NCBI GenBank assembly: GCA_963841915.1
Contig: CAWJEN010000006.1
Span: 928,001-992,000, forward strand
DNA length: 64,000 bases
Source: an uncultured Planctomycetota bacterium
Lineage (GTDB): Bacteria; Planctomycetota; Phycisphaerae; Tepidisphaerales; Tepidisphaeraceae
Reading direction: 5' to 3'
Part shown: one piece after another, positions 3,972 through 25,967 of the stretch
Numbering within the stretch: the first letter of the stretch is position 1
How the letters are laid out: every line of letters begins with the position of its first letter
Translations under genes and position numbers: made by a program
Notes under the pieces: model-generated
Told to the model about the DNA's origin: nothing
What the model saw: the letters and a program-made list of their open reading frames with translations, nothing else
The model's database searches: none

Positions 3972-4135
3972 CGACCAATGATGGCCGCAAAGGCGGCCGC
4001 GGCGGCGCAGGTCGTATTCTGCACAAGTTGACTGCAGGGCGGACGCGGAATGACGCCGGAACATCGTAATCGACGGCGGTACCGCCTCGTGTGGCGCACG
4101 ACCCGCCGACGCAGCGGCAACCGTCGGCGGGACGA

Positions 4136-4151
4136 TGTTCCACGTGGAACA
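4136..4151. promoter_or_regulatory. parS: parS-type ParB binding palindrome
   Basis: TGTTCCACGTGGAACA, fits the bacterial parS consensus TGTTNCACGTGNAACA. Confidence 0.88.
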
Positions 4152-4203
4152 GACCGGGGCGGCGCGACGAACGTACGTGGCCGCTCGTGGCGAGGGTTTG
4201 CAA

Positions 4204-4219
4204 TGTTCCACGTGGAACA
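4204..4219. promoter_or_regulatory. parS: parS-type ParB binding palindrome
   Basis: TGTTCCACGTGGAACA; palindrome extends to AATG...CATT (4202-4221). Confidence 0.88.
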
Positions 4220-4418
4220 TTCGCCGAGTCGCCGACCCCGATGGCCGCCGCGGCGCAGCGCCTGGCGTCGTTTTTGCAACTTTGTCGGCCTCGCAAGGTG
4301 TCTGGCATGTCTGCAACGGTTTCTAACGTTGTCGGACCCGCGCCCCGGCCCGTACCGTGGCCCCGGCTGGTGGCGTAAGTCACCTGCCCTTACACACATG
4401 ACACGCAGCATCCCCTCG

Positions 4419-6248
4419 ATGAACACACTCCTTAATTCTCGCATGACCGGTACCCGACGCATCGCCACCGCCGCTTCAGCCGCGGTCGCAGTCGTCTTCG
4501 GCGCGCTCGCCACCAACGCCAACGCCGACGTCGCCGAGGCCATCCCGAGCGACGCGCTCTTCGCCATCAAGATCAACGACATCCAGTCCGTCTCAGACGA
4601 CTGGGGCGCGTTGGCCAAGGAGTGGGGCCTTGACCAGATGGAGCCGGGCATGGCCGATCCCATCGCGGCGATAAAGGGAGAAACTGGCATGGGCGAGGGC
4701 ATCGATTTCGACGGCGAAATGGGCATCTACGCACCGGCCGGCGCTGATTTCGACGGCGACGAGCCGCCACTCGTCGTGCTCGTGCCCGTCAGCGACTACG
4801 ACGCGTTCCTCGACAGCTTCGAAGACCGTCGTAAGGAAGGCGATTACGACCTCGTCACCAGCCCCGAAGGTGAAGACGTCTACGCCAAGAAGGTCGGCGA
4901 CTACGCCGCCATGACCCCGATGATGGACCTGCTCGGCATGGGCGGAGAACTCGGCCTGAAGATGGACGGCCCCAGCGGCGACCAGTTTGATGAGCAGGAC
5001 ATCACCCTTTACGCCAACTTCGTCAGCCTTGCTCCGATCCTGAACAAGGCGATCGAAGAGAACGGCGGCAAGGAGAAGATGATCGAGGAGCTCGAAAAGG
5101 CGTTCGAGAGCGGTGACGTTCCCGAGGGCTTCAAGCAGTACCAGCCCGTCGCCAAGGCCGCCGCCGGTCAGGCGTACATGGTGCTCGAGAGCTTCCTGCG
5201 TGACGCCAAAGCCGCCACGGTCAGCGTCGACTTCAACCCTGAGGCCGGCATCGCCGGCAGCGTTGTCGCTCACTTCAACGAGGGCAGCTACCTCGGCGAC
5301 GTCATGGGCAACCTCAAGACCAGCGATGGCTCGCTCCTGAGCGGCCTGCCCGAGGGCAACTACCTGTTCTTCGGCGGCAGCGCTGCCGATCCTGAGCAGT
5401 CGACGAAGCTGTTCACCGACCTCGCCGGCCCCGTCCTCGAAGAGCTGCAGGGCCTCGACGGCGAGGTTTCAGAGCTCGTCGGCGAGCTGGTCTCGTCGGT
5501 CGAGAAGGCCCTTGGTGCTACCGAGAGTGCCCGCTTCGGCCTGTTCGCACCTGACGTCAGTCGCATTGGTCAGGCCCCGCTGCTCCAGCAGGTCCAGATC
5601 ACCAGCGGCGACCCGGAACTGCTGATGGACGTCGCCCGCAAGGGTGCCGAGATCAGCCCGAAGCTCATGCAAGCCATTGCCGCCCAGGCTGGTGAGGCAG
5701 ACGCCCCTGACGTCGGCGTGAAATTCGAAGAGAACGCCAAGGAAGTCGCCGGTGTCACGTTCACCAAGTCGACCACCGAGCTTCCGCAGAACGACGCGAC
5801 GCAGGCCCTCATCACGAACCTGTTCTTCGGCCCCGAAGGTCAGACCGCTTACCTCGGCACCGTCGAGGACAGCTTCCTGTCGGTCAGCGGCCTGAGCGAT
5901 GACCAGATCGCCAGCGTTGTCGAAGCCATCAAGGCCGACGCGTCACCGCTGACGGAGAAGAACGGCATGGAACTGATGGCAGACAACCTGCCCGAGGATC
6001 GGTCGATGGTTGTCTTCTGGGACGTCGGCGAGACGGCCCGTGCCGGCCTCGGCGCGCTGCAGGCGTTCGGCCAAGCTCCGCCGATCCAGATCCCGCAGAA
6101 CCTGCCCCCGATCGGCATCGCCGCCGGTCCGGCTGAGGACTCGCTCATGATCGGCGTTCTGGTTCCCAAGGACCTCGTCAGCGCCGCCATCGTGACCACC
6201 ATGCAGCTCCAGGGCGGCATGGGTGGCCCGCCGAACCAAGGCCTCTAA
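4419..6248 (+). CDS. Exported acidic hypothetical protein (DUF3352-like architecture); start uncertain (4398/4419/4443)
   Basis: Signal peptide ending ANA-D, IPSDALFAI N-terminus, strong codon bias; the ORF extension to 4050 runs through parS and is spurious. Confidence 0.7.
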   Translation: MNTLLNSRMTGTRRIATAASAAVAVVFGALATNANADVAEAIPSDALFAIKINDIQSVSDDWGALAKEWGLDQMEPGMADPIAAIKGETGMGEGIDFDGEMGIYAPAGADFDGDEPPLVVLVPVSDYDAFLDSFEDRRKEGDYDLVTSPEGEDVYAKKVGDYAAMTPMMDLLGMGGELGLKMDGPSGDQFDEQDITLYANFVSLAPILNKAIEENGGKEKMIEELEKAFESGDVPEGFKQYQPVAKAAAGQAYMVLESFLRDAKAATVSVDFNPEAGIAGSVVAHFNEGSYLGDVMGNLKTSDGSLLSGLPEGNYLFFGGSAADPEQSTKLFTDLAGPVLEELQGLDGEVSELVGELVSSVEKALGATESARFGLFAPDVSRIGQAPLLQQVQITSGDPELLMDVARKGAEISPKLMQAIAAQAGEADAPDVGVKFEENAKEVAGVTFTKSTTELPQNDATQALITNLFFGPEGQTAYLGTVEDSFLSVSGLSDDQIASVVEAIKADASPLTEKNGMELMADNLPEDRSMVVFWDVGETARAGLGALQAFGQAPPIQIPQNLPPIGIAAGPAEDSLMIGVLVPKDLVSAAIVTTMQLQGGMGGPPNQGL

Positions 6249-6278
6249 GGCTTTAGACGGTTCTTCCGCGAACACAAA

Positions 6279-6306
6279 AAGCCCCGCCACAGTTGTGGCG
6301 GGGCTT
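6279..6306. terminator. Bidirectional intrinsic terminator
   Basis: AAAAAGCCCCGCCACA-GT-TGTGGCGGGGCTTCTT between convergent genes. Confidence 0.8.
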
Positions 6307-6336
6307 CTTCATGCGCTCAAAATCGATGGAGACGTC

Positions 6337-6843
6337 CTATTCAAGTACCCAGTAGTACCGCTTGTCTGCGATGCGGCGGAAGTTGCCGAGCGTCAGATCG
6401 CCATCGTCCAAGGCAGCGTCGATCTTGGTCATGTACGCGTCGTCACGGGTCGGTCCTGTCCCGTCAAAGTGGACGCCGACAGCCAGGCCGACCCCCGAGT
6501 CGTCGGACTCGATGTCCCAGCTTCCACCGACCGGCGTTGGCCTCTCGAACGCTGCACAATCGATCATGCCGTGCATCGAGACGGGACATGTGCCGGTCGA
6601 TGAGTCCTCTGGATTGCCTGCGAACTGAGCCGCGTAGAGCGACAAACCCTGCTGAAAATGCTCAAGATTCGCCTGGAACACGGTTCGGCGGGCGTCGTCA
6701 TCGTGGTCGGCGACCTTCGGAATGATGATGGCCGCGAGAATGCCGAGGATAACGACCACGACGAGGATCTCGATGAGCGTAAAGCCCCGGCATGAGGCCT
6801 GCGGTCGGACGATGCAACGGGTATGTGCGGTAGCGTGGTTCAT
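6337..6843 (-). CDS. Prepilin-type N-terminal cleavage/methylation protein (pilin or GspG-like pseudopilin)
   Basis: GAGGAG RBS; RGFTLIEILVVVVILGILAAIIIP class III signal. Confidence 0.88.
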   Translation of the reverse strand: MNHATAHTRCIVRPQASCRGFTLIEILVVVVILGILAAIIIPKVADHDDDARRTVFQANLEHFQQGLSLYAAQFAGNPEDSSTGTCPVSMHGMIDCAAFERPTPVGGSWDIESDDSGVGLAVGVHFDGTGPTRDDAYMTKIDAALDDGDLTLGNFRRIADKRYYWVLE

Positions 6844-6901
6844 GCGGCTCCTCGGTGCGGGTAAACGTTCGGCAAGATGTGATCTACGATCTATCGCCTT
6901 G

Positions 6902-7435
6902 GTGGACCACCCGCACATGACGCGTCACTCCGGTGGCTGGTTTGTCGCCTCGACCGCCCACGTCAGCGGCGACGTGCGGATCGGCCGCGACGTCAGCCTC
7001 TGGTTTGGTGTGAGCATTCGTGGTGATGTGGCAGCCGTCACGATCGGCGTAGGCACCAATGTTCAGGACAATGCTGTCATTCATTGCGATGCAGGCGTGG
7101 CTAACGACATCGGCACCGGCGTCACCATCGGCCACGCTGCCATCGTGCACGGCAGGCGTGTCGGCGACGGGTCGCTGATCGGCATGGGTGCGACGCTGCT
7201 GGGCGGCAGTGAGATCGGACGCGAATGCCTTGTCGCCGCCGGTGCCGTCGTGCCGCCGAACATGATCGTGCCCGAACGCACGCTCGTGGCAGGTGTGCCC
7301 GCCAAGGTCGTCCGCGAGGTGACAGCGCGTGACTTGGCCTATCTGCAGAAACTCCCGCCGCACTACGAGCGACTTGCAGCTGAGCATGTCGAAGGCAAAC
7401 ATTGTGCGGGCGGACGACCTTTAGAAGACGCATGA
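6902..7435 (+). CDS. Gamma carbonic anhydrase family hexapeptide-repeat protein (start 6902 or 6917)
   Basis: GDVRIG, IRGDV, TNVQDNAVIH, TIGHAAIVHG, LVAGVPAKVVR. Confidence 0.9.
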   Translation: MDHPHMTRHSGGWFVASTAHVSGDVRIGRDVSLWFGVSIRGDVAAVTIGVGTNVQDNAVIHCDAGVANDIGTGVTIGHAAIVHGRRVGDGSLIGMGATLLGGSEIGRECLVAAGAVVPPNMIVPERTLVAGVPAKVVREVTARDLAYLQKLPPHYERLAAEHVEGKHCAGGRPLEDA

Positions 7436-7914
7436 CCGCTTTCCGCATCGGCCACGGCCACGACATCCACCGCGTCCAGGCCGGTGGCTTCATGAAGCTG
7501 TGCGGCGTCACCGTCGCCCGAGACCGCTCCTTCATCGCTCACAGCGATGGCGATGTCGCTCTCCACGCCATCGTCGACGCGATGCTGGGCGCGCTCGGCC
7601 AAGGCGACATCGGTCGCATCTTTGACAACACTGACGAGCGGTGGAAGGACGCAGACAGCAACTTCTTCCTGCAGGAGGCGGCTAATCGAGCTGAAGCTGC
7701 AGGGCTCTGCTGCATCAACCTCGACGTCACGATCCTCGCCGAAGCACCGAAGCTGGCAGGGCACATTGAGGCGATGCAGACGTCCCTTGCCAAAGTCCTG
7801 CGCGGGCAGATCAACATCAAAGCAGGCACCAACGAGGGCTGCGACGCAGTCGGCCGGGGCGAGGCCATCGTGGCGACAGCCGTCATCCTGCTCGGCCCGA
7901 TCAAGTCGTCGTAG
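7432..7914 (+). CDS. ispF: 2-C-methyl-D-erythritol 2,4-cyclodiphosphate synthase
   Basis: RIGHGHDIHR, AHSDGDVALHAIVDAMLGALGQGDIG, INIKAGTNE; ATGA overlap with the upstream gene. Confidence 0.95.
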   Translation: MTAFRIGHGHDIHRVQAGGFMKLCGVTVARDRSFIAHSDGDVALHAIVDAMLGALGQGDIGRIFDNTDERWKDADSNFFLQEAANRAEAAGLCCINLDVTILAEAPKLAGHIEAMQTSLAKVLRGQINIKAGTNEGCDAVGRGEAIVATAVILLGPIKSS

Positions 7915-9034
7915 CCGCGTCTGCAGGTTCCTTCGATTCACCTGGGAACAGCAGAGAAAGCCCGATCCCGACGCTGACGGCCAGGGTGATGACACCCAGC
8001 GTGATCCAAGGCAACGCAGCCGCAAGGGCCGGTGCTGCGTCGTGGAGTGAGTGCCCGACGAGCATCTTGACGCCGATGTAGCCGAGCACGAAGGCCAAGG
8101 CTGGCTGCAGGAATCGAAATTCTCGAATGACGCCGGCCAGGGCGAAGTAGAGCGCCCGCAGGCCGAGAATCGCGAAGATGTTGCTCGTAAAGACAAGGAA
8201 CGTGTCCGCCGTGATGCCGAAGATCGCTGGTATGGAATCAACGGCAAAGATGAGATCCGTAAACTCGACCACGATGAGCGTCAACCCCAGTGGCGTGAGG
8301 ACCCAGCCGGCGGTCTTTGCAGCTGATGTCGTCGAAGGCTTAGGTGCTCCGAGATCGACCGGCTTCGGCGGATCGGCCTCGGGATCCTCGTGAAGCGACT
8401 CACCGGCTGCCAACTCCTCGCGGCGTATGACGAACCGCTGCCCGTGCAGCGTGTCGGTAACCGGCAAGAAGCGGTAGCTGAGCCGGACGATCATCGACTT
8501 GTTCGGATCGTGCTCGCTCCCCGCAAACAGCAGGCGGATCGCAGTGAAAATCAGAAAGATGCCAAAGACGTAGATGATCCACACGAATCGCTCGATCAGC
8601 TCCGCGCCGATGAGGATGAACACGCCTCGCAGGACGACCGCTCCGAGAATGCCCCAGAACAGCACGCGGTGCTGATATTGATCGGGAATCCGGAACGTCG
8701 AGAAGACAAGCGCGATGACGAAGACGTTGTCGATGCTGAGCGACTTCTCGGTGAGGTAGCCGCTGATATAGCTGACGACCGCCTCCCAGCCTGTATCGGG
8801 GTACAGGTAGTCCGGGCCCGGCTTGCCATCAGGGTACAGGCCGACGCCGTCCCAATGGCTGTTGTAGACGAAGTAGACCACGCCTGAAAACGCCAATGAC
8901 AACCCGACCCAGATCGCCGACCAGATCAGCGCCTCTTTCACGCTGACCACGTGGGCCTTGCGGTGAAAGACACCGAGATCCAGGGCGAGCATTGCGACGA
9001 CGAACAGCAGGAACCCTGCCCAGAGCCAAACCAT
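7901..9034 (-). CDS. TerC/Alx family metal homeostasis membrane protein
   Basis: EKSLSIDNVFV, QHRVLFWGILGA, DLIFAVDSIPAI, TSNIFAILGLRALYF. Confidence 0.93.
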   Translation of the reverse strand: MVWLWAGFLLFVVAMLALDLGVFHRKAHVVSVKEALIWSAIWVGLSLAFSGVVYFVYNSHWDGVGLYPDGKPGPDYLYPDTGWEAVVSYISGYLTEKSLSIDNVFVIALVFSTFRIPDQYQHRVLFWGILGAVVLRGVFILIGAELIERFVWIIYVFGIFLIFTAIRLLFAGSEHDPNKSMIVRLSYRFLPVTDTLHGQRFVIRREELAAGESLHEDPEADPPKPVDLGAPKPSTTSAAKTAGWVLTPLGLTLIVVEFTDLIFAVDSIPAIFGITADTFLVFTSNIFAILGLRALYFALAGVIREFRFLQPALAFVLGYIGVKMLVGHSLHDAAPALAAALPWITLGVITLAVSVGIGLSLLFPGESKEPADAATTT

Positions 9035-9176
9035 CCCAGAACATAGCGCCCGCTGCGGCTGAACAATTTTGCACTTGATCCGTTAGGGCGTTGTGCGCAT
9101 ACTACCCGAACAACGTCCGTCCGAACCATTACCGCACATCGCGGACTTATCGGCCGACGGCAGCGGGCAAAGGATT

Positions 9177-9785
9177 ATGCTCACCACCCTCAAGATTCGT
9201 CGACTCTGGCAGCTAGGCCGGTACCGCGCGCTCATCCGTGAATTGACTGCAGGCCGGCCGGAGGGGCGGTTGGGCCTTGACGAGACGGTGGGCGGGCCAG
9301 TCGTCGCCGCAGCCGTCGGCCTCGTCCGGCTCCGGGAGTTGAATCAGACTGGCGGCGTGGCTGAGGAGATGCGACAGCGGCTGCTCTGGACGCAAACACG
9401 CGACGGTTCCTGGGGCGAGGCAGGTGACACCGACGACAACTGGTTCATCAAGACTGCACTTGCGGTGCGCGCGCTGCACGGGCTCGACGCTGCGGCAGCG
9501 GGTGGCTTGGCGTTCTTGAGAAGGCGGCAAGGCCGCGCCGGCTGGGGCAGTGCGTCGGCCACAACAGCCGTGGTGCTCCTGGAGGCCGGTCGACTTCCTG
9601 ACGCCGAGTTCCGCTTGGCAGACGCGATGCTGGAGGAGCCGACGACCGGTGTTAGCGAACCTGACGCGGTGACACGATGGGCCTGGAAGCACGCGAAGCT
9701 GCGTTGTGGTCGTCTGGTCAAGGCCCAAAGACCGCAGCGTCTTGCGGTCATAGCAGACGAGCCGACTCTCGCCTTCGCAGCGTGA
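9177..9785 (+). CDS. Hypothetical protein with prenyltransferase/QW-like repeats
   Basis: LLWTQTRDGSWG and FLRRRQGRAGWG resemble QW motifs; AGGA RBS. Confidence 0.55.
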   Translation: MLTTLKIRRLWQLGRYRALIRELTAGRPEGRLGLDETVGGPVVAAAVGLVRLRELNQTGGVAEEMRQRLLWTQTRDGSWGEAGDTDDNWFIKTALAVRALHGLDAAAAGGLAFLRRRQGRAGWGSASATTAVVLLEAGRLPDAEFRLADAMLEEPTTGVSEPDAVTRWAWKHAKLRCGRLVKAQRPQRLAVIADEPTLAFAA

Positions 9786-10049
9786 GCTTCAGGATCATCG
9801 AAGGACGCCTAAGCAGCGGCTTTGCGAGCCACAGGCTTCAGACGTCAAAACAGCAGATGGTCCTGGACGCCTTCGCGCCGGCGACTCCGTACTAGAGCTA
9901 GCTCTTTCTATCGCTCGGCCGTCATTCTTAGCGAGCACAGCAATTTGAAGGTCCTTGCACGTGCTATGGATGCCAAGCGGGGGGGGTTCAAGTACAAGCC
10001 GCGCCTAGCAGAGGGCCGTACCGGCTGCTGTGACGTCTGGTAAAACAGT

Positions 10050-10074
10050 AGCCGGTCGGCTAAGCCGACCGGCT
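10050..10074. terminator. Perfect hairpin between convergent genes
   Basis: AGCCGGTCGGCT-A-AGCCGACCGGCT. Confidence 0.55.
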
Positions 10075-10170
10075 GGTCTAAATCTGATCGTTCTGGGCTC
10101 AACTCGCTCCAGAATTTTGCCGATACACCGTCAGAATCTGAATCGTACTTCTTGTGCAGGGCATTCGCAC

Positions 10171-10404
10171 TCAGCAGAACGTCTCGACCGCCAAGGGGTA
10201 GGGAATCAGATCGGGGCGAACGAGGTGGAGCTTGCGGAGGCGTACCTCTGCAGACTCAGTCGCCTCAACCTCCTCGGGTGCCTCAGCCGCCTCTACTGCG
10301 GGATTGACCAATACGGGCATTGCGGGCTGCGGAGCCTTCGAGCCAGAGAGCGTCAGAGCCGCGGTTGCGGTGAGTAGAGCAAGAAGGGTCGGGTAACGGC
10401 TCAT
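10171..10404 (-). CDS. Small secreted hypothetical protein
   Basis: GGAG RBS, signal-like N-terminus, C-terminal LHLVRPDLIPYP segment. Confidence 0.6.
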   Translation of the reverse strand: MSRYPTLLALLTATAALTLSGSKAPQPAMPVLVNPAVEAAEAPEEVEATESAEVRLRKLHLVRPDLIPYPLAVETFC

Positions 10405-10555
10405 CAAAGTCTCCGATAAAATCGGGTCGGTGGTCCAACCACCTGCGGGATGGCGTGTCAACGCGTGTCACACGACCTTCGTATAGATAATCCAATTCGG
10501 TCTCAAGGGCAAGTCACGACCCGCTACACGCCGACTTGTCGGAGCGGCTGTAGAG

Positions 10556-11092
10556 CTACGTCGTCTCGTCGTAAACGCCGTCGCCAGCCGGTGGCGGGGC
10601 AACGGCGTCGGCCGCGGGCTCTGCGTCGGCGATGTTATCGGACGCTGCCTCGGCAGCTTTGGCACCCGTCGCTCCGCCAAGCGACGAGATGACGAATCGA
10701 ATCAGCATCGGCTTGCCGAACTTGAAGCCCAGCCGAACCAGCCGAGTCAGCAGGCTCGGCTTCTTCTTGGCCATTGGCGGCCGCATGCCTTGTGCAGCCT
10801 GTGCCTTCAGCGTCCGCTCCAGCCGTTCGATCCGCTCGTCGACCGGCTTCTGCTTCGACGGTACAAACGCGACGGCAGCAATCAAACCGGCCCCGGCGGC
10901 AACGCCCAAGCCGGCCAGCGGGTACTTGCGGACAATCACCCGCGGGTCGGCGACGGCCTTGAGGTGCAGCTTCAGATCGCTCGCCGCTGCTGCCATAGCA
11001 AGCTTGGCGTCATCAGCCTGCAGGCGATAAACCGCCCGCTCGCCGCCTTTGATTTGCAGTTCAGGGTCCGGCACGGGGTCGACGTCGCTCAT
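10556..11092 (-). CDS. Hypothetical membrane-anchored protein (YqjK/DUF3618-like position)
   Basis: DPRVIVRKYPLAGLGVAAGAG; GAGGAG RBS, ATGA overlap with the upstream gene. Confidence 0.65.
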   Translation of the reverse strand: MSDVDPVPDPELQIKGGERAVYRLQADDAKLAMAAAASDLKLHLKAVADPRVIVRKYPLAGLGVAAGAGLIAAVAFVPSKQKPVDERIERLERTLKAQAAQGMRPPMAKKKPSLLTRLVRLGFKFGKPMLIRFVISSLGGATGAKAAEAASDNIADAEPAADAVAPPPAGDGVYDETT

Positions 11093-11565
11093 GGTTGCTC
11101 CTCTCGCCGATGTCGCTCAGCCTCGGCACGGTCGGCGGCATCGACGGCAAACGACTCCCGCTGACGACGCAAACGCTCACCGTACGCATGCCTCGCGGTG
11201 TGCTTACCGGCCGAGCTGATCGAGCGGATGACGAACCACACGATCAGCGGCACGCCGAGTGCACCAATCAAACCAATCGCAAGCGGGCCAACCCACGCGA
11301 ACCCGCTCGGCATGAGGGCACTGATGGCACCGGCCAGGCCGATGACAAGCATGACGCACATCGTTATGAGCACCGTCAAGCCGATGAGAGCAAGCACGAC
11401 CAGCAGCACGGCCAGCAGCGCAAGCCGCTTGAGCGTCAGCGTCGTGCTGCCGACCTTGGCAGACACATACTGGCCCAGGTAGGCCAGAAGCTCTCGCGCG
11501 TGCGTCGCTGCGGCGGCAAGGTGCTGCTTGAGGTCCGGAGGTTCGGGCGGGCGGGCGTCGCTCAT
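11089..11565 (-). CDS. Two-TM membrane protein, phage-holin-family/YqjE-like
   Basis: Amphipathic N-terminal helix plus two TM segments; middle gene of an ElaB/YqjE/YqjK-like trio. Confidence 0.6.
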   Translation of the reverse strand: MSDARPPEPPDLKQHLAAAATHARELLAYLGQYVSAKVGSTTLTLKRLALLAVLLVVLALIGLTVLITMCVMLVIGLAGAISALMPSGFAWVGPLAIGLIGALGVPLIVWFVIRSISSAGKHTARHAYGERLRRQRESFAVDAADRAEAERHRREEQP

Positions 11566-11603
11566 AGTGGCCGCAGGTTCACAGGGTAAGACTGTCGGCA
11601 ATC

Positions 11604-11819
11604 TCATCGCTTGATGAGCCAACCCGCAACGACTCCGACGGCACACCCAGCAACTAGTGCGACTGCCGGCTTCTGGCGGATGACATTGCGAGCCTGACGC
11701 AGGCCCGCATGGGCCGCGTCGGCCGCATTGCCACCGGCGGACGGCTCGGCAGGCTCACCCACTGGTGGGACATGTGCCGATGCTGAAGCGGGTGGAACAG
11801 AAGCAGTGGGCGGACGCAT
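11604..11819 (-). CDS. Small tail-anchored ElaB/YqjD (DUF883)-like protein
   Basis: C-terminal IRQKPAVALVAGCAVGVVAGWLIKR. Confidence 0.65.
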   Translation of the reverse strand: MRPPTASVPPASASAHVPPVGEPAEPSAGGNAADAAHAGLRQARNVIRQKPAVALVAGCAVGVVAGWLIKR

Positions 11820-11900
11820 CACATAAGCCTACCCGCCCCGATTCTTCTCGACACTCAGCCACGCTGCGGCTACGTTGCTCTCCGTCCTACCGCGCCTTCC

Positions 11901-12335
11901 ATGGGCATTCGCGAGCAGATCAACGAGAAGCCCGCAATTGTTACCGCCGCTACGGCGGGGATCTTGTTTTTGGCTCTCCTGTGGATGTCGTTTCAATTGG
12001 GCTTCTTCGGGAAACCGTCGGCGCCGGCAAGTGCCTACTTCTGGCTCGGCGACAACCGCTTTGTCATCGGCGACATGCGAAGCTACTACGAGAGTGACCC
12101 GCTCGATCCCAGCCGCCCGGTGATCGCCTACCGCGTGAAACCGAGCGGCGGCGGGGAGTTGGTGCTTTGGTACCTCCAGCGCTTGACGACGGAGCAGGGC
12201 AATGGAGTCGCGGCCGAAATTCGTACGCCGACGATGTCTCGATGGGTGTCGATAAACTCGCCCGAAGCTGCCGAGATTAGGCGAAACGTGCCCCTCGACG
12301 GCGACGGACAGGTGATGGTTCCGCATCAGCCCTGA
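11901..12335 (+). CDS. Hypothetical protein with N-terminal membrane anchor
   Basis: MGIREQINEKP plus TM segment; non-overlapping ORF. Confidence 0.65.
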   Translation: MGIREQINEKPAIVTAATAGILFLALLWMSFQLGFFGKPSAPASAYFWLGDNRFVIGDMRSYYESDPLDPSRPVIAYRVKPSGGGELVLWYLQRLTTEQGNGVAAEIRTPTMSRWVSINSPEAAEIRRNVPLDGDGQVMVPHQP

Positions 12336-12340
12336 AATTC

Positions 12341-13327: not shown

Positions 13328-13343
13328 GCCGAACCGTATCCGC

Positions 13344-14654: not shown

Positions 14655-14747
14655 GACAGCGCGCAAAAACAACGGGAGCCGAGGAACGTCCTCGACTCCC
14701 GCCGCACGCCAGTGTGTTGTGAGCTGCAGACACCTGCCCGCGGCAGA

Positions 14748-17527
14748 TCAGGCACCGAGGCGGCTGAGGCCCAGGTTGTCGAGCATGATCGTGTAGACCG
14801 CGTCGGCGTTGGCGTCGTAGAAGTCGTCGTCACCGACGCCGTAGGTGTTGTCCCACTCGCTCTCGTCCATGAAGTTTGAGCGGGAGTCGCCCGTGCCGAT
14901 CCAGTTGACGCCGCCCTCGGCCCAGCCACCGGGCGTTGCCGCCGGCCAGACGTTGCCGTTGATCGCCTCGTACTCGCTGAGGTCGTTGTCTTGGTGGCTG
15001 AAGGCGGCGGCCCCGTAGGCACCGACCTCGAGGTTCGGAGCGACGTAGACGTTGTCTGTCAGTCGCAGCCCCTCGCTGCCGCCCCACGACTTGATCATGC
15101 CGCCGCGGGTGCCGGTGTTGGTGATGAGGTTGCCGTGCACCGTCAGGTCGACCACGGTACGGCCGTAGGCGGAGTCGAAGCCTTCGACGGTGATGGCGTG
15201 GTAGTTCTCGACATTGATGCGGTTGAAGCGGACGTCGACGTGCTCGGCACCGTGCTCGACGATGAAGCCGGCGTCGTCGCGATGGTCGTTGTACTCGAAG
15301 ACGGCGTACTCCCAGCGGTCCTGCTTGTGGCTCAGACCGTCGGCGTCACCGAGCGGCCCGACACCGCTGACGCCGCGGAGCGTGTTGTTGGCGACGTAGG
15401 CGTAGCTGCCGTGCTGCACGACGAGTGTGCCCTTGGCCGTGTCCCACTGGTCGCTCTGCGAACCTTTGTTGCGGCGGTCGATGTTGTCGAAGTCGTTGCC
15501 GCTGATCGTGACGCCTTCGATGCCACGGGCGAGCCGGATGATGTGTTCTCGGGTCGAGTTGACGGCCGTGTTGCCCAAGACGGTCATGCGGTCGCCCTGA
15601 CCCCAGATGAAGTAGGCACGAACGCCGGTCTCGCTCGGGGCATCATTGCCTTGGACCAGCATGCCGCTCGGGTTGGACGAGCCGAGGATCGCGGAGCTGA
15701 CATCAAGGAACGTGTTGTCCTGAATCGTGATGTTCGTGCCGGCCGGCACGATGCCGTTGGCGATCATCTTGCCCGTGTGCTGGACGCCGCGATTGGTCAG
15801 GGTCAGGCCACGGACGACGGTGCCGTCTGCACTGCCGTGCATGAAGACCATCGACTTGGTCCAGGTGTGCTCGCCTCGCCATTCGACCTTCGGCTTCGAT
15901 CCACTGCCGTAGGCGGTGATGGTGATGTCGTCGTTGCGGATGTGGATCTCTTCGTGCAAAGCGTGGGTCTGGCCGCGACGGAAGCGGATCTCGACGTGAT
16001 CGCCCTCGGCCTCCATCAGATCCAGTGCGCGGGCGGCAGAGCGGACGGCAGACGATGGCGGTCGAGCCGTCGTTGTTGTCGTTGCCGGAGTTGGCGTCGA
16101 CGTGGATCAGGCGACGCTGCGATGCTGCCACGGTGACGGTCGTCTGTGACTCGCCGATACGGCCGTTCTCGTCAGCGACGCGGAGCGTGATCGTGTACGT
16201 GCCGGGCTCGTCATACACGTGTGAGCCGACGAAGCCACGGATGCGATTGAAGTCAGAGCCGTTGTCGCCGAAGTCCCACTCGAAGGTGGCATCGTTGAAG
16301 TCACCTGCGTTGAAGCTCGTCTGCAGACCATCGACGTGGACGCTCTGACCGGCGATGATTGTGCGATCCTGGACCGACAGGCGAACCGTCGGAGCATCGG
16401 CGTCGCCGCTCGACGGTGGCAAAGGATCGCTCGTCGGCGGTTGAGGTGTCGCGGGAGGCGTGACCGGCGCGTTCGGCTGGCTGATGGCCTGGGCGACCTC
16501 GAAGTTGTACGTGACGGGCTTGCCGATGTCGCCGCTGGCACCCTTGTCGACGAATGTCTCGATGGTGAGCGAGTAGCTACCGGGCTTGGCCGACCAGGCA
16601 TTGAGCACGCCGTTGCTGTCGCCGTGAACGGCAAAGGGTGCATAATTCTCGGTGTGCGTCCAGGTGCCGTCGGGACCTTGGAGAGTGAAGCGGACTGATC
16701 CCTTAAACTCGAAGCCGGCTGAATCGATCGACGTCGACCACGATGCCGCCGTTGTTGATGGCATCGACGTCGAGCGTTCCGCCGTTGGCGACGCTGATCG
16801 ACTGACCATCGGCCAACACGGTCACGCTCTGGACGCGAAGATCTGCAAAGCCACTCTTGACGTCAACCTTGCTGATACGACCGGCGGAGGTTTCGACCTT
16901 CACGCCGACGTGGTTCTGTCCGATCTGACGGGCCAGGCGAAAGGCGTCGAACCGGCCGCGACGGCCGCTGAAGCCTTCGGTCTCGTGGAAGACCTGCACC
17001 CGCTCAACGTCACTCGTCACGTTCACTTCCGGCCGCGTCTTAGTCAGTCGACTGTCGAGGCGGACATTGTCCACGCCCTCCGTGCCGCTGACGGTGATGC
17101 GACGAACCCGCTCGACGTTGACCCAGTCGCCCTCAGTCCGCTCGCCGTTTGGACCGACCATGACACCACGAAGGTGAGAGCCGTCAAGGTCGAGCTCGAC
17201 GGCCATACCGGCGGCGGAGATCTGATTCGGGTCAAGCGACAGCGTGTCACCTGCGAACTCGACCGAGCCGGCACTGACACTCATGAGGCGTCGCGCTTCG
17301 AGCGGCGACAAGTTGTTGTCGGCGGCCGGTGCCTGATCACCCTTTCGACGGTTCGGCACGTAACGACGGAACTCACGTTGCTCCTGCACATTGAAGAAAC
17401 GGCCGGCGTTCCGCTTGCCACCGATGGTCGCGGCCGCGGCGGCGGCGACGACATCGAGCGGGCTTTCGTAGTCGGAGGTGTCCCCGATCGCTTCGTTGGG
17501 CTGGCGTGACATGGTCATAACTTCCAA
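14748..17527 (-). CDS. Large extracellular protein (LE-x-RRL leader motif, PKD domain, right-handed beta-helix), read as three ORFs because of two frameshifts (~16725, ~16060)
   Basis: LSPLEARRLMS; FEWDFGDNG..SHVYDEPGTYTITLRV (PKD); IHVDANSGNDNNDGS continuing into SSAVRSAARAL in the next frame; Asn-rich beta-helix repeats. Confidence 0.75.
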
Positions 17528-17702
17528 TACATCGGCTGCCTATGCCTACCAAACCTCCTAAATTAGCAGCGGACCCGATAAGATCGGGCCCGCTGCGTCT
17601 CAAAGCATTCGCTTCGACGTTTGTAGATTTACCGGGCCAAGATCGGCCGGTTCAGGTCGCAATTGCGACGCCTGTCGGCCGTCGCTGCGCCACTCTTGGC
17701 AC

Positions 17703-18077
17703 CTACTTGGCCGGTAGCACCGCGTCCTTCGCCGGCTTGGCGATGCGGAACTTGAGCGCCTTGCTGGCGGGCTTCTTCACCGGCTCACCCGTCTGCGGGT
17801 TGCGGAATGTGCGCGGGCCACGCTTGACGATGATGAGCTTACCGATTCCGGGGACCGTGAAGCCCTTTTCGTTCTTCTTCGCCTGGAGGTAGGCCAGGTC
17901 GGCCTGCTCTTCGAAGAAGGAGCGGGCCTGCTGCTTGCTAATGCCGACCTTGTCGGCCATGTAAGCGTAAATCTCGTTCTTGGTCATCGGCTTGTTCGGA
18001 CTTGGTGCCTTGGCCGGAGCGGCCTTCTTGACGACCTTCTTGACCGCCTTGGTGACCTTCTTGACTACTTTTGCCAT
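17703..18077 (-). CDS. hup: HU family DNA-binding protein with Lys/Ala-rich N-terminal extension
   Basis: MTKNEI, FTVPGIGKL, RTFRNPQTGEPV, LKFRIAK; AAGGA RBS. Confidence 0.92.
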   Translation of the reverse strand: MAKVVKKVTKAVKKVVKKAAPAKAPSPNKPMTKNEIYAYMADKVGISKQQARSFFEEQADLAYLQAKKNEKGFTVPGIGKLIIVKRGPRTFRNPQTGEPVKKPASKALKFRIAKPAKDAVLPAK

Positions 18078-18230
18078 GGTGGCTTCCTTGAAAAAGGTGG
18101 ATGTGCTGTTTCCACCCGCCGCACTCGACGGGTTAGATATTGAAAGTATCGGGAAAATCCGCCCGTTCAATGCAATCTGCGCCCCCGCGACAGAAATAAA
18201 TCGCTCGCATTCCCCAAATCAAGAGCCGAA

Positions 18231-19440
<1,210 letters not shown>

Positions 19441-19448
19441 GCCAGACT

Positions 19449-21339
19449 CTACCGCCGACGCCGCAAAAGCAGTCCGCCGAGCGACACGACGGCCAGTGAC
19501 GCCGGTTCAGGCACCGTCGCGGCCCAAGCGTCCATCGCCGCCAACTCTTGCAGGCTGCCGCCGAAGTTAGCTCGCAGGACTGCAAAATCGAGAATCGAGA
19601 CGGTGCCGTCGAGGTTGAAGTCCGACGCCGCTCGGCCGCTTGTGCCGAATTCGCTGCGAAGCACGGCAAAGTCGAGAATGCTGACGGTGCCGTCGAAGTT
19701 GGCGTCTCCGTTCAGGAGCCGAAGAGGCTTGAGAATCGCGGCATCTGCCGTGTAGGTGATGTCAAAGGCAAGGCCCGTCAGTCCGAGCGTGTCGATGATC
19801 CCGTCGAACGTGCCGAGCAGATTGTCAGCGTCAATGATGGTGAACGCATCACCCGGCAGCGGCTGGAAGCCGTCGATTGCAGTGACGACCAGGTCGCCGT
19901 CAACGTTTACCGCGCCGTCGATTTGCAGCGAATCAAAGCTGCCGTTCAGAAGGCCTCCGAGCTCGATATTGAGCGTGCTGTTTGTGCCGAGCGTGACGTC
20001 GCCGCCGAAGTTGACGGCAGCGGGGGAATTTCCGGGCTGGAAGTTGCCGAGGAAGACGACGTCGCCGCTGCCGGTGTAATTGCCGTCGCCGCTGGCGTTG
20101 TCGAACAGCGTGACGCTGCTTCCCGCAGCAACTTGCACCTCACCGAGATTGATGAAATTGCCTCGTACGGCCAAGTCTGCGTCGCCGCTGACGCCGACGG
20201 TGCCGTTGTTGGTGAAGAAGGCGTTGTTCTGGGTCAACACCTCGCTGTTGCCCCCGACGAATCCGATCGTGCCGCCGTTGAAGAGGAAGTCGGCGCGAAT
20301 GGTCGCGTCGCGGGCGAGGATGGACGCACTGCTGTCCACCAGCTCGATGCCACCCTGATCGAGAACGAGCGACCCGCCGTTGATGCTGGTTTGGCCGTTG
20401 AACGTGCTGGTCTGCTGATCGCTGTTGATGCGAAGCGTTTGGCCGTTGTTGATGTCGATGGTCGACCCGAAGTTCGACAGTATGGTGCCGTTGACAATGC
20501 CCCCGCCTGTAAACGAGCCTCCATCGATGATCTCAATGGCACGCCCGGAGCCAAACGGTGGTGGCGAGATGCTTCCGCCGTCGAGGCTGAAACGGCCGCC
20601 GATGGCGACGCTGCCGAGGAGGCGGGCACCGTCAGCAAAGCTCGCTGACGAGCCTTGAAACACGCGCAGCTCTCCAAACGACGCGCCACCCAGGTCTAAG
20701 ACATCGATCGTGGTGCCCACACCCGTAGCCGACAGTTCGATCTGACCGGTCGGGCCATTGTCGAACTGGTTGCCGAGCGTCAAGTCGCGGAACCGGCCCG
20801 TAGCACCGTCGGCAAAGGATAGATTGACGCAGCGCCGTCGGCGGTACGACCAGCTGGGTCTGCGCCATCTGCAGGAGCGAACCTGCACCGTCGACACGCA
20901 CGATCGCGGTGCTGTTGAAGGACGGCACCAAGAACTGAACATTGTTAAGCACCCGCAGCTCTCCGCCGTTGGTGATGTTGACGAACCCGCTGTTGCCGCC
21001 ATTGTCGAAGGGTTCCGATCCGAGGAGCAGGCTGTTCGCGACGACGCTGCTGCCAAAGCCGTCGATATCGAGCACGCCCGGGGCGGCAAAGGTGCCGACC
21101 TGCACCGTCTCTACACGTGCGGTCGCACCGTCGAGCACCTCTAGCCGGCCCGAGGGGCCGGTGCCGATGACAAAGTCACTAGAAAGGTCGTTGATCACTC
21201 CGCCGAGCGAGCCGTTGACAGACGATCCGCCGAAGTCGACACCGCCTGAGGCGACGATGTCAGGAGCAGCTTGGACGGACACGACAGCCGGCAGAAGCAC
21301 GGCCGCGGCTGCGAGGGCAACGGGGTGACGCATTCTCAT
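19449..21339 (-). CDS. Secreted beta-strand-repeat protein with dockerin-like double repeat and PEP-CTERM; frameshift near 20840
   Basis: Signal peptide in ORF 20632-21339; FQPGNSP motif, GDANFDGTVSILDF x2 and VPEPASLAV..RRRR in ORF 19449-21089. Confidence 0.8.
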
Positions 21340-21400
21340 AGCGACGCGAATCTACCACAGATGCGAGGCTTCTGCACGCGTTAGCGCTATCTTCATCGGC

Positions 21401-22084
21401 ATGACCGACGGCTTTTTGGTCCTCGACAAGCCCGCCGGCCTCTCGTCCGCCAAGGCGCTTAACAACGTCAAACGTCGCTTCGGCAAGGGCGTCAAGGTCG
21501 GACACGCCGGGACGCTTGATCCTTTTGCCACCGGTTGCCTGGTCGTGCTTGTCGGCCGCGGTACCAAGGCCAGCGATCGCGTCATGACGCTGTCCAAGGG
21601 CTACATCGCTGACGTTAAAGTTGGCGTCACGACGGCCACCTTCGACACCGAAACCGAAGAAACAGAAGGGCCGGCCATCGCTGAGCCGTCGCGGGCGAAG
21701 CTGGACGCGCTTTGCGACGCGGCCGTCGGTGAGGTGATGCAGCGACCGCCTGCGTTCAGCGCGATCAAAGTCGGCGGAAGGCGGGCCTACGACCTCGCAC
21801 GCGACGGGGCAGCCGTCGAGCTGCCGCCGCGTGCGGTGCAGGTCTACGCGATGAAGGTGCTCGACGTGGCGTGGCCGAAGGTTCGCGTCGAAATGCTCGT
21901 CGGCAAGGGCTTTTACGTCCGCAGCTTCGCCCGTGACTTCGCAGAACTGCTCGGAACCGTCGGCTACCTGACCAGCCTCCGCCGCACGCACGTCGGCCCG
22001 TTTCAAGCAGACAACGCGTCCGGCGTCGATGGTGACTTGCTGCCGCTGTCGACGTTGGATGATTGGAAGCAGCAGGCCCCCTGA
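21401..22084 (+). CDS. truB: tRNA pseudouridine(55) synthase
   Basis: LDKPAGLSS, KVGHAGTLDPFATG, PPAFSAIKVGGRRAYDLAR, KGFYVRS, LRRTHVGPF. Confidence 0.95.
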   Translation: MTDGFLVLDKPAGLSSAKALNNVKRRFGKGVKVGHAGTLDPFATGCLVVLVGRGTKASDRVMTLSKGYIADVKVGVTTATFDTETEETEGPAIAEPSRAKLDALCDAAVGEVMQRPPAFSAIKVGGRRAYDLARDGAAVELPPRAVQVYAMKVLDVAWPKVRVEMLVGKGFYVRSFARDFAELLGTVGYLTSLRRTHVGPFQADNASGVDGDLLPLSTLDDWKQQAP

Positions 22085-22163
22085 GCCGCGGTTTCACGGA
22101 CCACGGTTCAGGGCCGCTATAAGTTCGACGCAGGATGATCCTGTCTGACTTCGACAGATGTCA

Positions 22164-23210
22164 CTACAGCTTCGCCCGCTGCTCTTTCACCGCATCAATG
22201 AGGGCTTTCTGCGGCTTGGCGAACTTGGAGATGCCTTCTTCCATGAGAAAGTCCTCCATCGCCTGCAGATCGACCTCGTCGTCCAGCTCGGCCAGCACCT
22301 CATCGCTCGGCAGCTGATCGACCGTCTTTGCGTACGTCCCGGACCCGTCGGCGATCGCATCATTCGTCTCCGGCGGGTTCGTCTGGATGCCGCCGCCTGC
22401 CACATGCTTCGGGTAGTAGTCGTCATCCTGCCAATCGAGCTTCTTGCCCGTCGAGGCGAAGATGATCTCCTGCTCAAGCGGAAGGTTCTTGTCCTTCCAG
22501 AAGCTCTCGTTGTCCGCCCATAACCGCTTGGCATTGACGAGGCCCATCATGCCTTGGGCGTCGTCACTCAGGCCCGGCACCTTCTTCTCCGTATAAACGT
22601 CGACTCGGCTGATGAAGATGGAGTAGACGCTCTTGAACCGGTCGAGCCCGTTCTTTCGCTTCTGAGCCCCGCGCCAGACGGCATCGCGGGCTGCCTGGTA
22701 CTGCCGCTCGGTGAAGATCAGCGTCACATTCAGCGTCAATCCGTCGGCGGCGAGCGTTTCCAACGCCTCGAGCCCGGCAGGCGTGGCGGGCACCTTGATC
22801 ATGCGGTTCGTGTACCCGCTGCCCCAGTATCGGCCGAGGCTGATGTAACGGCTGACCCGCTCGTCGTGCGGCATGTCCGCTTCGGGGTCCTCGATCAGCG
22901 GGTCCAGCTCGAAGCTGACCCAACCGTCATTGCATTTGGTCCGCTCCCAGACGGGTTGGAACTGCTCTTGAGCCTTAGAAACGAGGTAGTCGCACATCAT
23001 CCACGCTGCCGACGTGTCGGTGGCGTTCTCGAGCATCGACTTCATGGTGTCGTCGAAGCGGCCACTCTTGATGAGGGCCGAGATGATAGCGGGATTGCTG
23101 GTGGCCCCGGTGATGCCGCGCTTGATGTTGGCCGTGACCTCGTCGGGATCGACGCTGTCGAGCCAGAGTTTGGTGCCGGTGTCGACGAGGCTTTGGAGTG
23201 CGTTGCTCAT
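22164..23210 (-). CDS. tal: Transaldolase family protein
   Basis: LWLDS, GATSNP, MIKVPAT (Schiff-base Lys), [19 protein letters not shown]. Confidence 0.9.
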
Positions 23211-23312
23211 GGGCGGCAGCGTACTGCAAGGCCCGCAATCCCGCCGCCCTTGGAACTGCGACACGTGTCGGTTGCCGACTCGTACACCGGCGCTATAGTC
23301 GCCGCCCCAAAC

Positions 23313-23394
23313 GGGAGTGTACCGAAGTGGACAAACGGGTCTGACTGTAAATCAGATGGCTACGCCTTCGGGGGTTCGAATCCCTCCGCTCCCA
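23313..23394 (+). tRNA. tRNA-Tyr (GTA), CCA not encoded
   Basis: Acceptor GGGAGTG/CGCTCCC, anticodon arm TCTGA-CTGTAAA-TCAGA, long variable arm, GGTTCGAATCC. Confidence 0.96.
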
Positions 23395-23403
23395 TAGACG
23401 CAC

Positions 23404-23428
23404 AAAGCCCCGCACTTTGCGGGGCTTT
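23404..23428. terminator. Bidirectional terminator after the tRNA
   Basis: AAAGCCCCGCA-CTT-TGCGGGGCTTTT. Confidence 0.85.
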
Positions 23429-23436
23429 TGCTTGGG

Positions 23437-24162
23437 CTACCGGAAAAGCGGACGGACCAGCAAAGCTACGCCAAAGACCGGGGCCGCAAATGCCGCGGCG
23501 GCGGTGCCTCCGACGATGAGTGCCGCGTCACCGACAACCGCAACCGGCAGGCCGACGGTGCCGACGACGGCCCGGTACGTCTTGTCGCCGCCGGTGGTCT
23601 CAAAGCTCGACGGAATGATCATCGCGTAAGCAAAGGCCGGCACTGCCGGCTGGCTCGTCGCGTCGCTGGTTGGCACACGGTAAAGGACGACCGACGCATT
23701 GTCCGTCAGAGGCAGCACTGTGCCGTCGGGGCGCGTGTACGGCTCGATGACGATGCCCGCATCCGTCACGGCCCGAGCCGTCTGCCTCAGCTTTGTCGCG
23801 GCGGCGTCGAGGCGCTGCACCTCGTCTGCACCCAGATCACGAATGGCCTGACGAATGTCCTTGCGGCCGTCGAGGACCGCCTGTGCGTCGAGCTCGGCCG
23901 GTGGGGCAAAATCGTTTCCTAGTGGCAAGACGACCCATCGCCGAGCGTCGAAGAGGAAGTCGAAGTTGCCAAGCCGCGGGCGTAGGACAAGCACCGGCCC
24001 CGTCTCGGCCTCAACAACATACGCAGGAGCCGTCGGCCGCGTGCCCAGGACGTCTGCGTCGCCGTAAGCATAACTGGCCGTCTGTCCGGTGAAACAGCCG
24101 GTTGTCACCAGTGTCAGCGGGATCAGGCACAGGCATAGAAGGCGCGTCGGCAGGCGTGGCAT
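23437..24162 (-). CDS. Hypothetical lipoprotein
   Basis: Signal ending TTGC; C-terminal hydrophobic GLPVAVVGDAALIVGG. Confidence 0.6.
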   Translation of the reverse strand: MPRLPTRLLCLCLIPLTLVTTGCFTGQTASYAYGDADVLGTRPTAPAYVVEAETGPVLVLRPRLGNFDFLFDARRWVVLPLGNDFAPPAELDAQAVLDGRKDIRQAIRDLGADEVQRLDAAATKLRQTARAVTDAGIVIEPYTRPDGTVLPLTDNASVVLYRVPTSDATSQPAVPAFAYAMIIPSSFETTGGDKTYRAVVGTVGLPVAVVGDAALIVGGTAAAAFAAPVFGVALLVRPLFR

Positions 24163-24186
24163 GGCCGGCACTGTACTGCGGTTGAC

Positions 24187-24888
24187 TCAGGAGGCGATGT
24201 ACTGCTCGTGGTGCGAGAGGTCGCCGCGGGCACGCGCCTCGAGCTGACGCATCCGGTCGTCCACCCGACGGGCGACTTCGAGTTGACGGTCCAGCGTCGT
24301 CGATAGCTCACCGAGCGAGCGGCTGCGGTCCACCGACTTGGCCATGGCGGCGGCGGTCAGCACACGATCGACGCCTGCCTCCAGTGCGTCTGCCGCCGGT
24401 CCGGCATCGAGCACGAGCGTGTCCCGCTCCTGATAAATCGTCTCGCGGGCCGAGTCGGTCGCAAGCTCCCGGGCGGCCAGCGTCAGGTCGAACGCGTCCT
24501 GCAGCGACGAGGCAGTCGTGTCGAAGAGCTCGCGAAGCTTGTGCCCCAGCTCCTGCGGATCATCAATGGGCACCCGATCGAGCTTCGGCCGCAGCTTACC
24601 GAGTCGGTCGACAAGGCTCGCAATGACGAACGCCCCTTTGACCTTGGCCCGCATCTCCAGATCGTCGAGGTCGCGCTGCCGAAACCGAGTCGCCGGACCT
24701 GCCGCGGGTGCTGCCGTTGCCTGCTGCCGGACGCTCATGCCGAAGAGCGTGCCCACACCCGCACCAATCGCAAGGCAACCGGCCGCCACGGGTATCAGCC
24801 AAGAGAACGCCAAGCCTCCGACCGCGACGGCAACGCCACCCACCACCAGAAAGCCACTGGCTATGCGCGTGCTGGTTGAGGTCGGCAT
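24187..24888 (-). CDS. Hypothetical protein, two N-terminal TM helices plus helical domain
   Basis: Codon-biased ORF from MPTSTS; upstream extension runs through parS. Confidence 0.65.
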   Translation of the reverse strand: MPTSTSTRIASGFLVVGGVAVAVGGLAFSWLIPVAAGCLAIGAGVGTLFGMSVRQQATAAPAAGPATRFRQRDLDDLEMRAKVKGAFVIASLVDRLGKLRPKLDRVPIDDPQELGHKLRELFDTTASSLQDAFDLTLAARELATDSARETIYQERDTLVLDAGPAADALEAGVDRVLTAAAMAKSVDRSRSLGELSTTLDRQLEVARRVDDRMRQLEARARGDLSHHEQYIAS

Positions 24889-24939
24889 GACCGACTTTAG
24901 CGCTGCGCCGCGGCGGCCACGCGGGTCGGCGAATGCGAA

Positions 24940-24955
24940 TGTTCCACGTGGAACA
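24940..24955. promoter_or_regulatory. parS: parS-type palindrome
   Basis: TGTTCCACGTGGAACA inside a perfect 26-bp palindrome (24935-24960). Confidence 0.88.
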
Positions 24956-25015
24956 TTCGCCGCGAGGGCAAATCGTCGATGGGCGGTCGTGGCGAGGGTG
25001 CGAGAACCTTCAGAC

Positions 25016-25031
25016 TGTTCCACGTGGAACA
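25016..25031. promoter_or_regulatory. parS: parS-type palindrome
   Basis: TGTTCCACGTGGAACA. Confidence 0.88.
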
Positions 25032-25186
25032 ATTTCGCGTCTTCGACTGCGTCGGCGGGTCGTCGGCCGTCCGTGATGGTGTGGTAGCTGGTGCGCACAG
25101 GATTACGAAGAAAGGGCGCGGCGGGTCGTCGCTACTGCGGGTCTTTGCTGCACGAAACCACCTGCGCCGCCGCGGCCGCCGCGGCG

Positions 25187-25856: not shown

Positions 25857-25967
25857 GCCGCCGCTCGGGTGCTGCCACGATCGCAGTATGGCGGGGCAGG
25901 TGCGCCGGTTCCACCTTTGGCGACTTTCCGGCATGAAGTGTCGCTGTGCGGTGACGAAGAAATAGAA

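Follow-up and report, generated by a model that had tools for sequence, protein, structure and literature searches.

Why should a bacterial chromosome carry two pairs of the centromere site parS, each pair set within the same non-coding element, with the two elements facing each other across 20.6 kb? The question is raised by a 64-kb stretch of DNA (the window, positions 928001-992000 of contig C6) from an uncultured planctomycete of the Tepidisphaeraceae, whose genome, labelled G000 here, comprises 3.63 Mb in 6 contigs and is 93.8% complete. A bacterial chromosome is, as a rule, fired from one origin. In the cited sections of the sources, known parS sites are described as clustering origin-proximally (PMC7022226, PMC7333895), their clusters as spanning 5-40 kb in most bacteria with wider scatter in a few lineages (bioRxiv 10.1101/2020.12.04.411900), and parS copies far from the origin as harmful (PMC7333895). 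Judged on sequence evidence alone, the rule that parS stays near a single origin is broken in G000, regularly and with a consistent polarity. The reading we prefer, and regard as evenly balanced between right and wrong, is that the element is one of a set of distributed ParB-loading cassettes which divide the chromosome into centromere-bearing units of about 55 kb, with replication also starting near the cassette.

A family of parS cassettes

The 16-mer TGTTCCACGTGGAACA, a 16-bp palindrome of the parS consensus (given in the cited table of PMC7022226), occurs 121 times exactly in G000 and 175 times at up to two mismatches, and the parS matches of the genome form 113 clusters, 60 of which are pairs. 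An iterated nhmmer model seeded with the two window copies gathered 62 full-length cassettes of about 280-310 bp and a few partial copies besides, with 31 on C6, 24 on C5, 4 on C3, 2 on C1, 1 on C4 and none on C2 (40 kb). What a preliminary description of the window had presented as a two-copy duplication turns out to be a family, to which at least one degenerate copy also belongs. Within the window, four parS-like 16-mers (up to three mismatches to the consensus) are found, against 0.15 expected.

The order of parts in the cassette is palindrome L, a spacer of about 85-95 bp, block B, a first parS site, block C, a second parS site and half-site R. Copy 1 (3984..4261, plus strand) lies in the gap between an 87-residue open reading frame (ORF) that ends at 3971 and a 601-residue ORF that starts at about 4443, and copy 2 (24900..25188, minus strand) begins at the stop codon of a gene, frameshifted in the assembly, which from its translation we take to be cytidylate-kinase-like. 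Block L (3984..4009, plus, in copy 1; 25163..25188, minus, in copy 2) is a 26-bp imperfect palindrome, TGCGC-n4-GCGGCCGC-n4-GCGCA, made up of two half-sites, and is a putative binding site for some protein. Block B, GACGACCCGCCGACGCA (4097..4113, plus; 25048..25064, minus), is non-palindromic and sets the polarity of the cassette. The first parS site (4136..4151; 25016..25031; no strand is assigned to parS sites) is followed by block C, of family consensus AAACCC...GGGT, whose right arm lies at 4187..4198 (plus) in copy 1 and whose left arm lies at 24989..24999 (minus) in copy 2, at a fixed distance to the second parS site (4204..4219; 24940..24955). Block R (4242..4257, plus; 24904..24919, minus) is a single half-site of the L motif, oriented like the right half of L. 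Both copies contain the blocks named earlier, in matching order, namely GGCGGCCGCGGCGGCGCAGGT (3992-4012 and 25160-25180), TCGTAATC (4064-4071 and 25101-25108), block B, the parS pairs and a right block (4242-4261 and 24900-24919). The first of these was rightly recognized at the left, but the true end lies further out, at 3984 and 25188, as the 26-bp palindrome; likewise, although both window copies carry TCGTAATC and TCGCCGACCC, the family consensus lacks them as fixed blocks.

Across the genome, the L half-site is found 86 times within cassettes and 6 times elsewhere, and block B (up to one mismatch) 37 times within cassettes and twice elsewhere. This near-confinement of the non-parS blocks bears out the earlier suggestion of selection on sites additional to parS; neither a generic repetitive extragenic palindromic (REP) sequence nor a one-off decaying duplication describes a family whose blocks are kept over 62 copies. 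The blocks are 80-100% fixed, unlike the spacers. Pairwise identity among the copies (40-bp flanks included) never exceeds 62%, and L-B spacers of equal length, compared in 20 copies, share 31% identity, against 26% for shuffled spacers; given this divergence of the spacers and of every pair, the family is therefore old, with the blocks alone having been kept.

In the 50 of 62 copies in which every block was located, the distances between blocks are quantised, at 102/103 or 112/113 bp for B-L, 39/49/59 bp for R-parS2, 98/108/118 bp for parS2-B and 248/259/270 bp for R-L, and at 10.5 bp they reach a phase coherence of 0.76-0.89. Only the distance from parS1 to parS2, about 67 or 74 bp, departs from this pattern, with a coherence of 0.56. 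Single-base distances in G000 are somewhat noisy because the assembly carries frameshifts, which split housekeeping genes including the cmk-like gene (window 25187-25900), purH and argH (L036:9059-10679 and 18029-19297), a pattern that suggests long-read assembly errors. We infer that proteins bind the cassette as double-stranded DNA, at sites arranged in helical phase, and the earlier proposal of an extended centromere-like module is supported, with room in it for a predicted second factor.

A structured non-coding RNA in many copies (one of the earlier proposals for the window) or an element resembling a terminator would fit the folding z-scores of the two copies (-2.5 and -3.9) and the position after stop codons. 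The fold stems, however, from the two palindromic parS sites, which pair, and from the GC-rich ends, and an Rfam scan of the window matched one tRNA only. Moreover, L and R do not covary, the arms of block C covary weakly (0.34 vs 0.30), the spacer lengths shift by DNA helical turns, and orientation is independent of the flanking genes; the co-orientation with both flanking genes described for the two window copies holds there but extends to only 17 of the 62 cassettes. An RNA function is, in our judgement, barely credible.

The 57 gaps between neighbouring cassettes average 55 kb (smallest 11 kb, largest 130 kb), and their coefficient of variation (CV) is 0.54, compared with 0.96+-0.12 for random placement (none of 20000 simulations was as low). 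The cassettes lie evenly over C1 and C3-C6, without the origin-proximal clustering of a ParABS centromere. Back-to-back neighbours are on average 76 kb apart (minimum 33 kb, n=14) and face-to-face neighbours 47 kb (minimum 18 kb, n=18; p=0.007). Lone parS sites, of which 22 of 53 are located inside genes called with the analysis's own codon model, are found at most 3 kb downstream of a cassette in 41 of 54 cases and upstream in 4, all 4 of them at parB; counted by cassette, 38 of 62 are accompanied by a further parS up to 3 kb downstream and 1 of 62 by one upstream.

Several of these properties could also belong to a domesticated or tolerated non-autonomous mobile repeat, of the type of a miniature inverted-repeat transposable element (MITE) or of REP-like sequences, which captured two parS sites and whose blocks L and R would be transposase or recombinase ends. 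The cassettes resemble REP, REPIN, BIME and MITE families in their dozens of short intergenic copies of fixed length and ends, in their frequent insertion directly after stop codons and in their enrichment between convergent genes (23 of 62 cassettes, compared with 84 of 616 gaps of at least 250 bp). Furthermore, they are missing from the four congeners of G000, and some copying process must underlie the family. They differ from such families in lacking a cognate RAYT, target-site duplications, covarying inverted ends and young copies, and in being spaced evenly rather than clumped. Target-site duplications of k=4-7 are at the null level (56 copies; old copies could have lost one), L and R agree as inverted ends in 109 of 224 pairs, against 106 when shuffled, and the absence of close pairs of copies, like that of target-site duplications, speaks against the currently mobile element considered in the preliminary description. 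The sole RAYT-like gene has unrelated repeats of its own, and tyrosine recombinases are not in surplus (4 matches, compared with 4-14 in four other genomes). The search for an autonomous partner, which covered the Y1 and tyrosine-recombinase families, found none, and L/R motifs lie nearly all within cassettes. Since the even spacing, the satellite parS sites and the strand-bias footprint described below need a present-day function, we regard a mobile relic as quite improbable. Upstream of the RAYT-like transposase gene (G000 C6:1462500-1463678) lie short direct repeats of its own, together with partial duplications of its 5' end.

Strand bias at cassettes and dispersed parS sites

In G000, GC skew was taken at fourfold-degenerate codon positions, with a correction for the strand of the gene and with each profile read in the direction of the cassette. 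The skew is -11% at -6 to -2 kb and +13% at -1 to +2 kb (z of -6.9 and 7.5 versus random positions), in bins that were picked after the profile had been seen. Centred 1.5 kb upstream, a point which was likewise chosen post hoc, the minus-to-plus jump is positive at 57 of 61 copies, and centred on the cassette end it is positive at 38 of 62; among 766 control gaps of all four gene orientations, it is positive in about half. Minus to the left and plus to the right is the skew sign left by forks that leave an origin. The shift is alike whichever way the genes run, for each of the eight codon boxes and across the terciles of background skew, and pooling the stretches between cassettes yields a significant slope (p=0.001). 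Motif selection was rejected as the source of the skew, as no 6- or 7-mer stands out and all eight codon boxes shift, and gene orientation was rejected as well, as both directions shift alike and convergent control gaps are flat. At about 16 kb upstream of the cassettes there is a possible weak further skew wave with a period of 6-7 kb; a 7-kb damped oscillation further upstream is not claimed (p=0.05 over the scanned periods, split-half p=0.09 versus random positions). The GC content of fourfold sites is 83-84% upstream of the cassettes and about 80% downstream.

Related genomes were compared in three sets: 140 of the same family, 400 Phycisphaerae and 348 from other Planctomycetota classes. 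At least 19 exact parS sites are found in 3 of the 140 and 18-89 in 9 of the 400 (G048, G083, G085, G157, G193, G360, G384, G399 and G444, from five families), and the top count among the 348 is 22. In all seven of the nine for which the spread was listed (G048, G083, G085, G157, G360, G384 and G444, not G193 or G399), parS is spread across many contigs. G360, G157, G384 and G444 each have their own one-sided motif flanking parS, unrelated to L, B and R (few loci stand behind the motifs of the latter three), and the cassette model matches loci of other genomes over the parS part only. The rule that parS stays near the origin appears to have been broken repeatedly in related lineages, and we propose tentatively, with somewhat more doubt than assent, that several Phycisphaerae lineages independently evolved holocentric, multi-origin chromosomes with dozens of sequence-defined units, each with its own centromere and replication start and, like eukaryotic ones, placed at intervals of a few tens of kilobases. 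Such analogous cassettes in other Phycisphaerae, like the even genome-wide spacing, the polar satellite parS and the strand-bias footprint, had been overlooked in the preliminary description. The four congeners of G000 (G001-G004) contain 0, 2, 0 and 0 exact parS sites and at most 7 loose ones; in G001, G003 and G004 (80-98% complete), which have no exact parS, sites at up to two mismatches are no commoner than a control pattern. In G083, loci L121, L123 and L130 form a sub-family of parS clusters in which a palindrome-like block, presumably similar to an NrdR box, keeps a constant distance to two parS sites spaced 22 bp apart.

A counterpart of the G000 footprint is seen in G360, a genome of another family. 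Of its 58 sites 50 were listed, and the 42 of these outside the parB cluster were taken, 39 of which were suitable for scoring. Among these 39 sites, 36 have a positive skew jump (mean +28 points), versus 104 of 310 control gaps; the jump also appears in raw skew and whichever strand the genes are on, and it extends 10 kb to either side. On two tiled contigs (decile values), skew declines across 10 of 12 inter-site intervals of at least 20 kb, so that a sawtooth results, a pattern of the kind left by replication origins.

Skew steps might instead be scars of inversions or of joined segments, if the cassettes were recombination hot spots or points of site-specific recombination. Block L does look like a two-armed palindromic site, the skew of relatives is patchy, and at the single junction tested there is no synteny with congeners, the helicase upstream of copy 2 having different downstream neighbours in G001 and G004. 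Inversions would, however, yield plus-to-minus and minus-to-plus steps equally, and for this reason the 57 of 61 and 36 of 39 steps in one direction, together with the gradual decay between sites, weigh against this explanation, which we consider very improbable. Even when taken jointly, the mobile-relic, recombination and RNA explanations are unlikely.

The regional skew, as root mean square per 20 kb, is 6.8 in G000, 5.3 in G083 and 18.4 in G360, against 41.7 in G021, a family member with two parS sites that was the lone skew control, sampled at 20 places; skew in Phycisphaerae is not simply read, because this control is itself patchy. The parB/parS locus of G021 has no skew switch. On its contig C2 (L287-L306), the fourfold-site skew changes sign over tens of kb, with 4-kb bins from about -90 to +87.

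One origin or many

Under the preferred reading of centromere-bearing units with replication starts, ParB clamps would load at both parS sites of each cassette, and a predicted factor on L, B and R would shape the roughly 270 bp and block or direct spreading. This factor is proposed to make the unit directional, and for that reason extra parS sites would be selected only downstream and upstream sides would be kept further apart. The strand-bias switch would be a record of the bidirectional departure of forks, or of some other strand-exposing synthesis, the starting point lying about 1.5 kb upstream of L in G000 and at parS itself in G360. Replication would start near the units, with a clear sawtooth in G360 and a local trace only in G000. 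The family may have come from an old amplification, perhaps of the copy beside parB, after which selection for even coverage may have thinned and maintained it.

A number of observations weigh against this reading. In G000, the signal is only local, as the left-right difference beyond 7 kb from the cassettes is 1.3+-1.2 (p=0.13), TA skew does not switch at the cassettes, and a broad skew switch persists near dnaA (C6:371 kb). The cassettes contain no match at up to one mismatch to TTATCCACA, which we take to be the DnaA box, where the two DnaA proteins may read other boxes; no AT-rich unwinding element is marked, the L-B spacer being 39% AT versus 35% in the flanks; and genes near the cassettes have no outward bias (50.7% within 20 kb, 44.8% within 5 kb). 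In the window, neither copy has a satellite parS, and copy 1 is without the plus skew lobe. The exact L-B-C-R cassette is known from G000 alone. In G360, two large jumps occur without parS, one motif-bearing site with one mismatch lacks a jump, the sites are spaced without significant regularity (CV 0.87, p=0.26) and genes tend to point towards the sites. In G083, which has 66 exact parS, 20 clusters drawn from the leading 50 of the 71 sites on its list give no origin-like jump (positive at 6 of the 20, averaging -5+-2.6), and the control G021 varies in patches from -86 to +49 with no clean two-replichore pattern. The ParB proteins of five dispersed-parS genomes have no common oddity, as compared by eye with other aligned ParBs, and neither a second DNA-binding factor nor an initiator was identified.

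The cassettes may, alternatively, be distributed sites at which ParB and SMC are loaded or anchored, so that the chromosome, with a single oriC, would be folded and segregated in many small loops, the cassettes having a holocentric-like or Noc-like role, the strand bias then coming from some other process linked to the complex. Spacing, phasing and polarity fit this explanation equally well, SMC is present, and the absence of DnaA boxes and outward gene bias, the residual switch at dnaA and the lack of a jump in G083 all agree with it. In addition, loops form at individual parS sites of B. subtilis when replication is blocked, according to the cited section of one study (bioRxiv 10.1101/2020.12.04.411900). 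What such anchoring leaves unexplained is the replichore-size minus-to-plus switch and the gradual sawtooth of G360. Loop extrusion and ParB sliding affect both strands equally and do not account for the skew switch. We consider anchoring with a single origin possible, if rather doubtful.

Among known systems, chromosomal ParABS (B. subtilis, Streptomyces, Listeria, Myxococcus) is similar in its 16-bp palindrome type, single ParB, ParA-like protein and SMC. The differences are the 121 exact sites of G000, the 62 composite cassettes placed evenly on every large contig and the orphan parB. Noc-binding sites (NBS) are dispersed over the chromosome, and the likeness to the Noc-NBS system of Firmicutes is that of a ParB-type protein on sites spread over a chromosome. 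According to the cited section, Noc is paralogous to ParB and has a site to itself (PMC7333895). G000 has no second ParB-family gene, its dispersed site is parS and is arranged in phased polar cassettes, and the cassettes are seen to leave no large region empty, the widest gap being 130 kb. Repeated minus-to-plus switches with decay between them recall multi-origin replication, as in archaea, in eukaryotes and, by proposal, in bacteria; the bacterial cases were put forward from skew plots alone, in a paper whose cited section also states that skew changes have other causes (PMC3269012). Unlike in these earlier proposals, the switches here are tied to a defined repeat that contains a centromere site.

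Plasmids and chromids carry origin-centromere modules such as repABC, and the P1 parS has a phased site for a host factor. The cassettes are akin to these modules in combining a centromere, an accessory site and an inferred origin in a compact, helically phased unit, and unlike them in being present in dozens of copies on one chromosome. The cassette had no match in 72,556 plasmids, two metagenome scans and one viral scan, from which records close to G000 may be missing, and none of the 17 genes annotated at parB and in the window is a rep or par gene beside a cassette. In the literature searched, which did not include subscription papers and bioRxiv supplements, genome-wide parS cassettes were nowhere seen described for Planctomycetota, and prior mention is possible. 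We regard as new a centromere architecture that runs through the whole genome, evenly spaced and polar, and bears an origin-like footprint; taken by its parts alone, it is at least a striking ParABS variant. If the skew footprint is what it seems, the cassettes would provide the first defined, repeated sequence for putting multi-origin replication to the test in a bacterial chromosome. Planctomycetes have condensed nucleoids and divide without FtsZ, and the cassettes are a handle on how they fold and share out their DNA.

ParB, candidate factors and neighbouring features

G000 encodes one ParB (a single ParB_N match in this 93.8% complete genome), with ParB_N and HTH_ParB domains, and thus has, as a ParABS centromere does, a cognate ParB with CTPase and helix-turn-helix domains whose gene is flanked by the site. 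The parS 16-mer lies on both sides of parB, a degenerate cassette lies directly downstream, and parA is not adjacent. The best matches of this ParB, at 46-48%, are in Tepidisphaeraceae and Tepidisphaerales genomes. A ParA-like gene (G000 C6:204737-206035), far from parB, encodes a protein 31-39% identical to five ParA-like proteins encoded upstream of parB at other loci; it has a C-terminal extension of about 170 residues, the end of which presumably resembles a glycogen-binding domain. Two DnaA genes and an SMC gene are also present.

A 596-residue winged-helix protein, encoded two genes from dnaA (L037:6954-8744, minus strand, which is G000 C6:368954-370744) and having phage- or plasmid-initiator-like features, was rejected as a common factor, as it is present in 24 of 140 family genomes and was not found in G048, G083 and G085; it probably comes from a mobile element. 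Near dnaA, at about 380.2 kb of C6 (L037), an intergenic 9-bp tandem repeat has about 14 units. In the window, a tRNA gene (23313-23394, plus strand) is located 1.5 kb downstream of copy 2.

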